This document shows, piece by piece, positions 19,501 through 25,500 of a stretch of DNA of 64,000 nt (position 1 is the stretch's first letter; each line of letters begins with the position of its first letter). The position numbers and the translations under genes were made by a program. The notes under the pieces were generated by a model. It was not told the origin of the DNA. It did no database searches and saw nothing but the letters and a program-made list of their open reading frames with translations. The stretch comes from Heptranchias perlo (lineage: Eukaryota): assembly GCF_035084215.1 (NCBI RefSeq), contig NC_090334.1:54808001-54872000 (forward strand), written 5' to 3'.

Positions 19501-22500
19501 GGTTTGATAGGGTAGACATAGAGAAAATGTTTCCACTTATGGGTGAGTCCAAAACTAGAGATGATAAATATAAGATAGTCACTTATAAATCCAATAGGGA
19601 ATTCAGGAGAACTTCTTTACCCAAAGAGTGGTAAGAATATGGACCGTGCTACTGCAAGGTGTAGTTGAGGCAAATAGTATAGATGCATTTAAGGGGAGGC
19701 TAGATAAGCACATGAAGGAGAAAGGAATCGAAGGGTAAGCTGATAAGGTTAGATAAAGTAGAGAGGGAGGAGGCTTGTGTGGAGCATAAACACCCCAACT
19801 ATTCTTTCTCTTTCACTCTCGCGCTCTCTCTCATCTGGGGGTAATCTATCTTACAGCAAGCTCAATTTGGCCTTCAATACCCACCCACTCATGGATAGCT
19901 GACAAGTGAAGGGCCCCTGGCTTTTTGTGTTCCACCTTGTTTGCCATTCCAGTGGTACTGAAGCCAACTGTAGCTGGCCTGGCTGAGATGGATTAACTAT
20001 TAGTCCATATGGCTCAGTATCAGTCCAGGTGTTGCATTTACCCACTAAGTCATCGGGTGGCTTCATATGTTTTAGACCTGGAGTCAGCAGCACGAGCCAT
20101 CTGACCTCTGGCAATCTAAATCCTTTTCGATTAAGAGTGTGTTGGTGATAACCTAATGGCCAGCTTATGCTGCATAGTCGGGTGGTACTTAACTTTAACA
20201 TTGCTGTGTTTTTAGCATCTGTTTTTAAAAATTAAGTTTCAACAATTTTGTAGATGACCAGTTTATCTAAATCTCTAAGACAGTATGAGGTCATTCATTT
20301 TTCCCTCACTATTTTGCATAGTGTCTGATTCTATTGGTGTTAAAGTATTTAATAGCAGCTATAGGAATGTTTTAATAGTGCCTACACATCTGGGCATAAA
20401 CTTCAAAATGCTTACTGAGAATACCTGAAATCAGCTCAAATGGAAATAATTGTTTTCTTATTAGGCAAATACTCGATTGGCCAAACGTGGAGGCAGAACA
20501 ATGGCCATCACTCCTCGCCATTATCTGGACTTCATCAACCACTATGCCAACATGTTTAATGAAAAGCGTAGTGAACTGGAGGAGCAACAGATGCATTTAA
20601 ATGTTGGTCTGCGAAAGATTAAGGAAACAGTAGATCAGGTACTGTTAAACAAGTCATAAAACCGTATTGCTTAATATTTGAGTAATTTGTCTCTGAAAAT
20701 CATGGTGCTGATCTTTTACTGTATGCTTCCCCTCCAATAATTTCTCACTTAAAGACTTGGGATTCTATATAAGCAGATTGAGCAATGTCCTTGGTTCTGA
20801 ATTTTGTTTGGTAAAAAGACATTAGGTAAACTTGTTTCTGAATAGTGCACAGATAGTAGAATGCATCTATTGCTGTTACTATATTGATTGAGCTACCAAC
20901 AAATATCCAAGCTTTTTGTTGTGTCCTCATGTGAATGGATAGTGTTAAGGATTTCTCTTTGATATCTTAAAGGTACTCTTCCATCTTGTAAATCCAACAT
21001 GACTCTTATTTCTCTATCTCTCTCTCTCTTTTCTCCGCCCCCCCCCCCGCCCCTCCAACCTTAGGATATCATAACTTTCCCTCAAGTGTCTTAATTTTAT
21101 TAACATATAAAATCACTTGATTTTGACTGTTTACGTGCTTCAATAAAGCATTATTGATCTAATACCAGATGGCCAGCAATTCAGTGCTTTTGTGTCTGAA
21201 CTAAGTCATTGAGCTTTCCACATTAGATTTATATAGTATGGTAGTAATGTATTATGCTGATGTGTAAGATTGAATGGGAAATAGTTAGATTCTCCTTGCC
21301 CTTTGGTTTCATAGTCCTCTCTTCAACCTTCACACACATTCAAAGAGCTGGAGCTGATTGTCTGTCTGTGTTGCATCTATGCGATCTCTGTTATGATAAA
21401 GTCGTACCGGGCCAACACCCCAAGTAGGTCTTCTCTTTTTGTTCTTCCTTCTCCCTCTGCACCCTCATGAGGTTAAACTGCAATGTAGAAATGGAAAGTA
21501 CCATACTAAATGTCTTCCATTTTTGTAAATCCAATATGGTGCTGTTTTTCTTTTTTTTTAACCACTCCCCCCTTAAGAGATCATATAATTGTTTCCCCAA
21601 GTGTCAATTTTTGTTATCATATAAAATCATTTGCTTTTAACAGTATACCAAAGAATGCTAACAATTTTTGCTTCTGGGTAAATATATTTTTTTTAGAAAG
21701 CTGGAAACCTAGATACTAATGCAGGGTGCTTCTGACTGACAATGGAAATACCTTAATGCTAAAATTTGTTCATAATCTAATACATTTGCTAGGTTAGTTT
21801 GCTAATTTTTTTAAAATCCTTTCATTCTAGGTTGAAGAATTGCGGCGAGATCTGAGAATTAAGAGCCAAGAGTTGGAGGTTAAAAATGCAGCAGCCAATG
21901 ATAAGTTGAAGAAAATGGTGAAAGATCAACAAGAAGCTGAAAAGAAAAAAGTAATTTTTAAGCTTTTGAACTCTAATTGAAATGAACATCACACTGAGTC
22001 TGATCAAGTAAGACACCTTTCACTTTTTTTGACAGGTTATGAGTCAAGAAATTCAGGAGCAGCTGCACAAACAACAAGAAATTATTGCTGACAAGCAGAT
22101 GAAAGTGAAGGAAGATCTGGACATGGTAGAGCCTGCTGTCATTGAGGCTCAGAATGGTTAGATTTGTTTTGAATTGAGTTTTTAAAAAAAATTAATGACA
22201 TTTATGCAGTATACTGAATTACTATCTGTAGTAGCATTTTATTTACTTATGTTTTTGGAACTATAATCCTGTTAATTTTCTACCTTTTTTTTAAACAACT
22301 GATTAACTGATCTTTTCTGTGTGGTGTTTATCCCTCAATTTTCTATCTCTCCTAACCTTCACTTTCTCTTGCTGTTTGTTTGCACTCTGGCCTACGGTGC
22401 TGGTCTGATTAGCTGTAAAATCGATCAAGAAGCAGCACTTGGTAGAGGTTCGTTCAATGGCTAATCCGCCAGGTGCAGTGAAGCTAGCACTCGAGTCAAT

Positions 22501-25500
22501 CTGTCTGCTCCTGGGCGAAAGTACAACTGACTGGAAACAGATCCGATCGATCATAATGAGGGAAAACTTCATTCCGACCATTGTAAATTTTTCAGCTGAC
22601 GAAATCAGGTGAATAATGGGGTGCACGCAGCTGCTGGAGGTAGAAGGAAATTGCCCAGAAGACTAGCCAAAAGCTTAACTAAAGAAAAACTACTAAAGCA
22701 ATTGACCATTTAAGAATGAACAGAATTTTAACATTTTGGTGTGGCATTTTTTAACCAAACAAATTTGCTGTTTGGGTGACACAATATACTGCTGGTCTTC
22801 AAATTAAAAATTTCCTTTCTTGATTCCCAGCGACTGTTATACACCCCTTATCCTTTTGCATGTCCATTTAAAGCCCCTTTCTTTTCACCCCTCTATTAGC
22901 TGTGAGCTCTATAAAGAAGCAGCATCTTGTTGAAGTGAGAGCCATGGCCAATCCACCTGCTGCAGTAAAACTCGCGTTAGAATCAATCTGTCTCCTGCTG
23001 GGTGAGGAGACAAATGACTGGAAAAAGATCAGACAAGTTATTATCAGAGATAATTTCATCACCAGCATAGTCAACTTTAATACTGAAGAATTAAGGTATT
23101 CATTATTTTTATTTAAAAATCACATTTTTCTTGCATTTTGATTGTGTTGCAGCTCTTCATTGCTATGCACCACCTAGTTTGTGAATGGTACCTTTTTGTA
23201 GCACTATCAAATTGTGATTGAATTTCCATCCCTAAAATATCAAGAGGGCAATTGTGTTAACATTGTTCATCTTTATTCATCAGTGATGTTATTCGAGAGA
23301 AGATGAAGAAAAACTACATGTCCAATCCAAGTTACAACTACGAAATTGTCAACAGAGCATCTTTGGCTTGTGGTCCAATGGTGAAATGGGCTATTGCACA
23401 GGTGAGTAACTGAGAATATATCTGGACTAATAAAAGAAAATGTTTTATGATCATTTCCACTACGGTTAAAAGAACACTTCAGATTAGAGTTGTGAACAAG
23501 TGCTTTGCTGTCACTCTGAATTTCACCTCCTGTACTATAAAACCTCTCAAAAAGCAGGCTCCTCCGAGTCTTTTTTCCATCTTTGTGGTTGGCACCCTTG
23601 TAGCTGCTTTAATTTCATACCATTTTGTTTCATAGCTTAATTATGCTGATGTGTTAAAACGAGTAGAACCTTTACGCAATGAACTACAGAAGCTAGAAGA
23701 TGATGCAAAAGAGAACCAACAGAAGGCTGATGAGGTAGAGCAAATGATCCGTGACCTGGAGACCAGTATCGCTCGTTACAAAGAAGAGTATGCTATTCTG
23801 ATATCTGAAGCCCAAGCCATTAAGGCAGATCTCTCGGCAGTAGAAGCGAAGGTGAGTGGCATTATAAATGAAGGCTTTCTAATGCAGCTTCCCATGGAAA
23901 TACCAACTAAGGCCGGGATAATTTATTTGTTGGGTTAGAAGTTATTGTGAATTTTTTTTTCCTGTATGTGTCTGTCTCAGCAAAATGCATTTTTGTTCAT
24001 AAAACCCTCTTTTTCAGGTTAACCGAAGTACTGCACTGTTGAAGAGTTTGTCTGCTGAACGAGACCGCTGGGAAAAGACCAGTGAAACATTTAAGAATCA
24101 GATGGCCACCATTGCTGGCGATTGCTTACTATCGGCTGCTTTCATCGCTTATGCAGGATATTTTGATCAGCAAATGCGCCAAAATCTGTTTACAACTTGG
24201 GCACATCACCTCCAGCAAGCAAACATTCTGGTAATTTTAAAATTATTTCAAAAGCTTGGTTATTTTGTTGATCAGAAGAGATAACAATGGAAAAAGTATA
24301 ATCCACTTTAAACTAATTGTTTTTTGGATCCTGTTTACTATAGATGTGCAGAATAGAAAAGTTCTAATTACAGGGGATTTGATAATTAGTGTTAGAGGGT
24401 ATCCTCTGCTGTCACGATCAAGAGTCTAGAAGGGTGTGTTGCCTACATGGTACCAGGTTAAGGGCTATCTTAAAGATGCTGGAAAGTGAGGGCAAGGTGG
24501 GAGAACAAGCAGTTTTCGTGATTCATGTCTGAACAAATGACATAAGGAACAGGGAGGAGGGCATGATAAGGGAGTATCAGTATCTAGGTGCTAAATTAAG
24601 AGGGAGAATCTTGAAGGTAGTAATCTTACCTGAGCCCCACACTAATTGGCATACAGATAAACAAAGCAAATGCATGGCTGAAAGTGGTGTGGAAAGGAAG
24701 GGTCCCATTAATGGGACACTGGCACCAGTACTGGGACAGGGAGGAGTTGTAATGCTGGGTTGGGCAGCACCTGGGCTGGGACCAAGGTCTTATCAGAAAG
24801 GATAAATAGGATGGTAGAAAGGACTTTAAATCAATAAAGGTGTTAAATCATTGAGGTATGTTGAGTCTACAGCACAGAAACAGGCCATTTGACCATTTGG
24901 TCAATGCTGACATGTATGCTCCACACGAGCCTCCTCCCTCCCTACTTCATGTAACCCTATCAACATATCCTTCTATTCCTTTCTCCCTCGTGTGCTTATC
25001 TAACTTCCCCTTAAACGAATCTATGCTATTTGCCTCAACAACTCCTTGTAGGGGGTGGGAAGAGTCTGGGTGGAAATAACAGTAACCTGGGGATAGCAAC
25101 AAAGGTCTGTGTACAAAAACTGATAGATTAAATACTTGGAGGACAGAAAAAATTATAGGAAGTAATAAAATACCTGCTAAAAATATTGCTGGAATGATGA
25201 AAAACAAGAACATATTAAATTGCCTGTATAGTAATGTACAAAGCATCAACAACAAAGTGTGATGAGTCAAAAAGTATGAGAAATACACCATTGGCATATG
25301 GCAGTTATCTAAATAAGAATTCTGTACACACATGCATGTAGCATAAGAAACAAATGAGCTAGAAGCACAAATTCACTTTAAAGGGTGTGATGCAGCAATT
25401 ACCTGGTTACAGAATAATACCAGGGCTTAAATGGTTAAATTGAGGACAGATTGTATAAACCTGGTTTGTAGTCCCTTAAGTTTTGACTGTTGAGGGGTAT

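Follow-up and report, generated by a model that had tools for sequence, protein, structure and literature searches.

The window, i.e., the whole 64,000-nucleotide stretch of Heptranchias perlo DNA that was analyzed, was found to be crossed by the cartilaginous fish gene DYNC1H1, with residues 1995-4648 of skate DYNC1H1 mapping in order along positions 1333-50978. When the skate protein was aligned to the window, only one segment was matched twice. Two exons, A and B, are located there, each 196 nt long, running from phase 1 to phase 2, open in the same frame and bordered by the same splice sites (attag before CTGT at the start, AG before gt at the end). The following features were assigned:

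22036..22156, + strand, constitutive exon upstream of A (stalk CC1; phase 1 at its end), from junctions and translation
22157..22412, + strand, intron preceding A
22413..22608, + strand, exon A, 196 nt, end of CC1 and microtubule-binding domain (MTBD) helices H1-H4 (human 3296-3360), the form used by mammals and birds
22609..22899, + strand, A-B intron, 291 nt, with an AG-free zone of just 24 nt
22801..22892, + strand, pre-B stretch with a weak in-register alignment to the translated intron of two tetrapod-type B records
22857..22862, + strand, TGCATG, 43 nt upstream of the B acceptor
22900..23095, + strand, exon B, 196 nt, alternative MTBD front half with K3297S, S3331E and Q3337K
23284..23401, + strand, constitutive exon downstream of B (MTBD H5-H6 and start of CC2; phase 2 at its start), from junctions and translation

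Coordinates and alignment confirmed the original prediction of two tandem exons of equal length and phase, 291 nt apart, which share 50 of 66 residues when the two split codons are included. The exon number 23 used there is a rank inside the window only. Between A and B, 136 of 196 nucleotides and 48 of 64 whole codons were alike. This likeness is not due to chance, as pS was saturated (0.82) at a dN of 0.19, and different codons encode 30 of the 48 residues in common. A six-frame search of the same genome with B yielded 11 scored candidates and two matches, A and B at the DYNC1H1 locus. Among the PDB matches of the segment dynein-1 ranked first, and Pfam gave no match for the 64-residue A and B pieces. 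Being adjacent, equal in length and phase and compatible in their splice sites, A and B represent tandem homologous exons. In-silico joins with A alone or B alone kept the frame open, while both or neither led to a stop. Codon counting placed these stops at 22931 (both exons) and 23304 (neither), exactly as first proposed; at the level of the reading frame it was thus shown that a full-length protein requires the splicing of one of the two.

A steric block from a branch point near the A donor was rejected as the cause of exclusion at this locus, with 291 nt between the exons, the AG-free zone of 24 nt and the nearest branch-like word 66 nt from the A donor. In mites, A/B-type gaps measure 51-108 nt, and the steric situation there could differ. 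Since the 291-nt intron with its short AG-free zone provides no steric block, nonsense-mediated decay is the inferred route: A and B would almost certainly both be spliced in H. perlo, with double inclusion or skipping removed by this decay. The last 176 nt of the intron before A contain no AG; of the 48 DYNC1H1 introns in the window, none has a longer such zone (median about 30). Words resembling a branch point were found in the intron before A at 22299-22311 and 22352-22356. We infer a regulatory role for the long zone. As candidates for docking/selector pairing, an unfiltered total of 22 short inverted repeats was obtained, mostly AT-rich and none of them convincing. The TGCATG before B is an RBFOX-type word; 33 copies occur in the 64-kb window, so this single match is weak. 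For 22801..22892, 11 and 4 of 400 shuffles scored as high as the alignments with the two tetrapod-type B records, and the other four of the six B records (back-translated introns) gave no signal. Intron conservation with teleosts was not detected in 15 comparisons, among which the top scores came from pyrimidine-rich pairs that are not orthologous (2 and 7 of 300 shuffles); one orthologous intron pair reached 10 of 300.

Gene models using B, mostly predicted XP or Ensembl-derived ones, were found in sharks, rays, bichirs, teleosts, frogs, turtles, lizards and snakes. The earlier caution that fish models may hold both isoforms was justified, as fish, amphibian and reptile models already do, and both occur as full-length models among non-mammalian vertebrates. 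Among 12 compared protein pairs from the same gene, nine (Danio, Conger, Erpetoichthys, Polypterus, Amblyraja, Eleutherodactylus, Xenopus, Mixophyes and a Chrysemys gene) had all of their differences, 16-23 residues, within the exon span; the remaining three were not A/B pairs. The 15 cartilaginous fish models listed, from a cluster of 55, comprised nine A and six B forms. The curated zebrafish protein NP_001036210.1, which belongs to a record class (NP_) based on transcripts, is the B form. Five short dynein peptides were missing from six supplement files of a zebrafish gonad proteome. Models chaining A and B in one protein (P0003, P0300, P0154 and others) were interpreted as annotation errors that bypass the frameshift.

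All 27 mammal and 16 bird records checked contained A and none contained B. As B is missing from all of them, it is, judging by these records, dispensable in two lineages, mammals and birds, where it was apparently lost. It was also absent from the genomic intron at the amniote locus L010. A decayed B was not significant there by plain alignment (35-138 of 300 shuffles for three B-containing queries), and a profile alignment (3 of 200 shuffles for the best of 6 queries) is no more than suggestive of a remnant. The original prediction had described exon A as matching the human sequence, which holds for 62 of 64 residues of the mammalian sequence and not for full identity. Across species, both copies are evidently under purifying selection, and B was far more variable than A (mean identity 82% versus 97%, invariant columns 31 versus 54).

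Among lampreys, gene 1 carried B in 9/9 models and gene 2 carried A in 6/6, the two genes being 85% alike outside the exon. All three hagfish models used B. In the tree of the 64 columns, the A group and the B group each included lamprey (90/85 and 94/99), and in lampreys the two forms appear to be divided between separate genes. The lamprey split dates back about 500 million years. Neither this lamprey-to-lizard depth nor the two lamprey genes nor the protostome tandem copies described below had been noticed in the original prediction.

The A/B exon encodes the end of CC1 and H1-H4, and 13 of the 16 residue differences fall after H2, i.e., in the H2-H3 loop, H3, H4 and beyond; helix map and alignment agreed with what had been proposed on both points. 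The microtubule interface is formed by H2, H3, H4, H6 and H1 (Lacey 2019). S3297, E3331 and K3337 were found in 22/22 vertebrate B and 0/24 A sequences. K3297S affects the last residue of CC1, S3331E lies in the H2-H3 loop and Q3337K in H3. The predicted extra lysine in H3 is real (Q3337K), but it is outweighed by K3297S and S3331E, leaving 21 of 22 B sequences with a net charge one positive unit below that of A. The tubulin-contacting residues K3299 and R3337 of mouse (human 3301 and 3339) are basic in both forms. An AlphaFold model of a teleost B form (P0007; pLDDT 86-91 across the MTBD) overlaid the solved stalk 3wuq at an rmsd of 1.1 Å over 261 columns and 3err at 1.6 Å. According to this model the six-helix MTBD fold is retained with exon B.

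As the best overall explanation, we consider it fairly likely that an ancient tandem exon duplication provided dynein-1 with two interchangeable MTBD front halves. The A motor and the B motor probably differ; the original prediction proposed that they may do so in microtubule affinity, processivity or tubulin-code preference. B keeps the known tubulin contacts, but its charge is shifted by K3297S at the hinge between CC1 and H1, by S3331E in the H2-H3 loop and by Q3337K in H3. Given these shifts, B would most likely bind slightly weaker or release faster than A, and an altered run length would be expected. Whether B binds weaker or tighter can only be guessed, as side-chain positions are not resolved in the 4.1 Å map. 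Only tentatively do we suggest that the choice is regulated by cell type, in that RBFOX-rich cells (neurons, muscle) might repress B and favor A, with other cells using B. Mammals and birds would have fixed A, and cyclostomes would have assigned A and B to separate gene copies.

Unlikely, in our estimate, is a true mutually exclusive pair with functionally near-equivalent products, B being a minor backup under weaker selection that is disappearing from one lineage after another. The faster divergence of B, its absence from all mammal and bird records checked and from the amniote intron, the many invertebrates managing on one copy and the contact residues common to A and B would fit. However, the three charge changes are fixed in 22/22 B sequences from hagfish to snake, an entire lamprey gene and all three hagfish models use B, and so does the curated zebrafish protein. 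It is improbable that the pair mainly sets dynein dosage through regulated double inclusion or skipping followed by nonsense-mediated decay, with secondary protein differences. A poison role could do without a conserved coding sequence, whereas B is conserved at the protein level, and lampreys retain B as the form of one gene, even if the stops of both aberrant joins fall far upstream of later junctions and the AG-free zone at A is unusually long. Very improbable is an effect of B on the stalk-registry switch or the folded auto-inhibited state instead of tubulin contact itself; K3297S does sit on the last CC1 residue, with CC1/H1 the sole part moving upon binding, but 13 of the 16 differences are located further along, from the H2-H3 loop through H3 and H4 onward, and H3 and H4 belong to the microtubule interface. 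An assembly duplicate or dead pseudo-exon can practically be dismissed, as saturated synonymous sites with low dN, two cartilaginous fish B models 64/64 identical to B of the window and a B exon with the same splice sites in the teleost genomic contig L003 refute it. The purifying selection on both copies that had been predicted is supported.

Tandem duplication of the A/B exon also occurs in arthropods, snails, a flatworm and a nematode, with two tandem copies in the fly Glossina and two copies in the flatworm Macrostomum; many invertebrates have a single copy. The deep forks of the 64-column tree fit one origin or several. In AU tests (21 of 60 tree rows), "A+B" was not rejected (p 0.64), nor was "A + upstream protostome copies" (p 0.36). 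Possible, though we would not bet on it, is a splice switch at the MTBD tip that is an old bilaterian trait or re-arose at the same exon in vertebrates, insects, chelicerates, molluscs, flatworms and a nematode. Cell types would then receive motors differing in grip, for instance for neuronal long-haul versus mitotic or epithelial tasks, cyclostomes would have split the forms into two genes, and mammals and birds would each have lost B. If this reading were true, one heavy chain for all tasks would be a peculiarity of mammals and birds.

Dynein-1 is taught as a single heavy chain, with variety coming from accessory chains and adaptors. Two versions of this main minus-end transport motor may operate in most vertebrates. 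If most vertebrates and many invertebrates swap the tip, work on dynein in zebrafish and Xenopus has dealt with two motors mixed together, the curated zebrafish reference being B, a form not seen in the mammal records. The pair represents a natural, 500-million-year-old MTBD mutagenesis pointing at residues 3297, 3331 and 3337, and is testable by existing SRS-MTBD and motility assays and by exon deletion in zebrafish.

In mammals, every dynein subunit but one is encoded by two or more genes (PMC1331979). Exactly the A and B proteins are present among the RefSeq or Ensembl-derived dync1h1 isoforms of fish, amphibians and reptiles (XP_073783094.1 / XP_073783095.1, NP_001036210.1), as unnamed X1/X2 records for which no describing paper was found. 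Both forms are already in RefSeq models, and our literature search found no paper on a splice switch in the dynein MTBD. A mutually exclusive exon pair is in print for Schistosoma mansoni DHC1 (Pillmann 2011, PMC3228551; cited in Kollmar 2016, PMC5100056). Again a cytoplasmic dynein heavy chain is concerned. Its two exons lie in the part encoding the motor, are homologous and equally long, and have a split codon at each end. In contrast to A and B, the text places the pair at the "middle of the gene", with no exact position or domain, vertebrates or function. Given the two copies in Macrostomum, it may be the A/B exon. Muscle myosin heavy chain of arthropods is likewise one motor gene tuned by clusters of homologous alternative motor-domain exons. 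That actin motor has many clusters with known kinetics, whereas dynein-1, a housekeeping microtubule motor, has one at its track-binding tip. FBgn0261797, which we take to be Drosophila Dhc64C, provides a further parallel. It is found in the fly sheet of a genome-wide list of mutually exclusive exons (Lam 2021, PMC7954323, S1 Table) as a bare id with neither exon nor domain, in a paper whose text does not mention dynein. Finally, the lamprey genes, each modeled with one exon form only, resemble splice-form subfunctionalization after gene duplication, the subject of PMC4417111.

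The two tandem exons of the dynein-1 heavy chain gene (DYNC1H1), designated A and B, lie at the following window positions:

22413-22608, forward strand: exon A, 196 nt, starting with CTGT after attag and ending in AG before gt
22900-23095, forward strand: exon B, 196 nt, with the same start and end

The placement, lengths, splice ends and 291-nt spacing agree with the original prediction at the same coordinates. A and B were found identical at 136 of 196 bases and encode the same residue in 48 of 64 whole codons, with synonymous sites saturated (pS 0.82) and a dN of 0.19. When the exons were joined in silico, the frame between the flanking exons stayed intact with A only or B only; joining both or neither created a stop, which bears out the proposed one-of-two frame logic. 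A search of the species' own genome (3.25 Gb) returned two matches among 11 candidates scored, namely A and B. The exon pair is real. Skate DYNC1H1, the top score among 15 vertebrate proteins compared with the window, maps collinearly over 1333-50978, and the A/B segment is the sole doubly matched part of this alignment. That top score places the animal among the cartilaginous fishes. Outside the exon pair the following features were recorded, the last of which is possibly an exon of a neighbouring gene:

52433-54004: broken LINE-type element, with a reverse transcriptase domain (RVT_1, Pfam, E 1.8e-17) across several frames
59870-60241, reverse strand: piece similar to a LINE-type element, by eye
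62261-62917, reverse strand: 218-codon open frame without a Pfam match

The exon corresponds to human residues 3296-3360. In the AlphaFold model of a teleost B form, which overlays the solved stalk and microtubule-binding domain (MTBD) at 1.1-1.6 Å, the stalk coiled coil CC1 ends at 3297 and is followed by H1 (3301-3308), H2 (3315-3327), H3 (3335-3342) and H4 (3347-3352). Sequences were sorted by overall likeness, one per taxon, into 24 A and 22 B forms, with a mean identity of 97% for A versus 82% for B. Seven columns were without any residue common to both sets, and three of these are fixed charge changes (K3297S, S3331E, Q3337K); every A sequence has a net charge of +1 (24 of 24), compared with 0 for 21 of the 22 B sequences. 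In the structural study, H2, H3, H4 and H6 form the microtubule interface, CC1/H1 is the part moving upon binding, mouse K3299 and R3337 are contacts, and the axonemal flap is located at H2-H3 (Lacey 2019, PMC6629372). Both contact positions are still basic in B. The human disease sites K3336 and R3344 are basic in A and B alike. B therefore preserves the core, and its charge shifts fall on the hinge, on the loop and on H3. From these substitutions we infer that B alters grip, most likely with binding somewhat weaker than that of A.

The caution that fish models may already hold both isoforms proved justified, as public models contain both, and the arrangement is more general than the original prediction knew. 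Three protein searches (best 120 of 147, 219 and 182 matches) and three cluster look-ups yielded B-form models from hagfish, lampreys, sharks, rays, bichirs, sturgeon, teleosts, frogs, turtles, a lizard and snakes; the curated zebrafish protein NP_001036210.1 is a B form. Differences were confined to the exon span in 9 of 12 protein pairs compared, the remaining 3 not being A/B pairs. Among 15 cartilaginous-fish models listed, 9 were A and 6 B. All mammal (27/27) and bird (16/16) records picked were A, which does not amount to proven absence of B, since a large cluster, of which 15 members are listed, may conceal B forms; the lizard B form sat inside a cluster of 1102. At a bird-like locus (L010), A is followed by an intron of about 640 nt (4189-4830) without an intact B. 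B ranges from lamprey through to lizard, and mammals and birds appear to have lost it. A short stretch like the start of B was seen at about 4650-4680 of L010, where shuffles made a decayed remnant only suggestive. Turtles seemingly carry a second, diverged DYNC1H1-like gene (P0176, P0290, P0293-P0298), which in Chrysemys retains A and B forms; in some of its A copies, basic residues of H1 are changed.

The lamprey models fall into two DYNC1H1-like genes, whose sequences are 85% alike apart from the exon. Gene one (P0181, P0305-P0312) showed B in 9/9 models versus A in 6/6 for gene two (P0203, P0316-P0320); hagfish showed B in 3/3. A quick tree built on the remainder of the motor placed both lamprey genes with hagfish (support 0.89), and in the exon tree the lamprey exons themselves clustered with jawed-vertebrate A and B. 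On the simplest reading, the pair would predate the cyclostome gene duplication, each copy having retained one form.

Outside vertebrates, two tandem copies of the segment were found in models of beetle, bee, tsetse fly, stick insect, mites, sea spider, snail, flatworm and Trichuris, and at 13 of 79 genomic loci, 10 of which differ in peptide sequence. Twelve of the pairs are complete; in each of these, AG and GT flank both copies in matching phase, 64 or 65 codons apart. Isoforms of bee, ant, butterfly and scorpion employ either copy. A single copy was present in 15 models from amphioxus and in those decapod models that were listed, and several contigs carry one copy between the two flanking exons. 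The exon tree is compatible with one origin and with several. In L016, L023 and L029, an insertion of one codon in the H4 region brings the downstream insect copy to 65 codons, its length still being 3n+1. Intron-poor mite and hymenopteran dynein genes (L064, L065, L071, L023) retain the introns flanking the pair. Models chaining both exons in one protein (P0003, P0158, P0300, P0154-P0157, P0160, P0161, P0164, P0166, P0195) are likely annotation errors.

With regard to splice choice, steric blocking is unlikely because the A-B intron has 291 nt and an AG-free zone of 24 nt; in mites, where the copies are 51-108 nt apart, the gap could force steric exclusion. The intron before A carries a 176-nt AG-free zone, the longest among 48 introns in the window, which suggests that the branch point lies far upstream and that the acceptor of A is regulated. 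Six of 9 invertebrate pairs likewise have an AG-free zone of at least 80 nt ahead of their first copy. A TGCATG motif, an RBFOX-type word, lies 43 nt upstream of B. The effect of RBFOX proteins on an exon depends on site position, and by this rule the motif would repress B and aid A in neurons and muscle, a role we consider rather doubtful. In two tetrapod-type B records, the translated introns are compatible by eye with TGCATG at -44 and -37; they align in register with the A-B intron, 11 and 4 of 400 shuffles scoring as high. Four other records and teleost DNA gave no signal. The last intron of the gene (50294-50852) also has a long AG-free zone (123 nt) and a TGCATG at most 60 nt from its acceptor. 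By the established rule of nonsense-mediated decay, double-inclusion or skip products would be removed.

Full-text searches, with most subscription journals outside their scope, turned up no publication describing alternative exons for the dynein-1 MTBD. Hatje and Kollmar 2013 probably lists the fly cluster. Term searches for "dynein" gave no match in PMC3303723, PMC12159805, PMC9013439 and PMC6071210, and passages from PMC1331979, PMC5147784, PMC3146978 and PMC9303857 contain nothing on the A/B exon. New here are the vertebrate domain assignment of the pair, the three fixed charge changes, the lamprey two-gene split and the phylogenetic range with its apparent loss. In earlier work, a mutually exclusive pair of Schistosoma DHC1 serves as test case, its place unnamed (Pillmann 2011, PMC3228551), alternative motor-domain forms exist for some DHC genes (Kollmar 2016, PMC5100056), and the fly gene identifier FBgn0261797 appears in S1 Table (Lam 2021, PMC7954323). 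The A/B pair belongs to this known kind and is already present, without a name, in public gene models.
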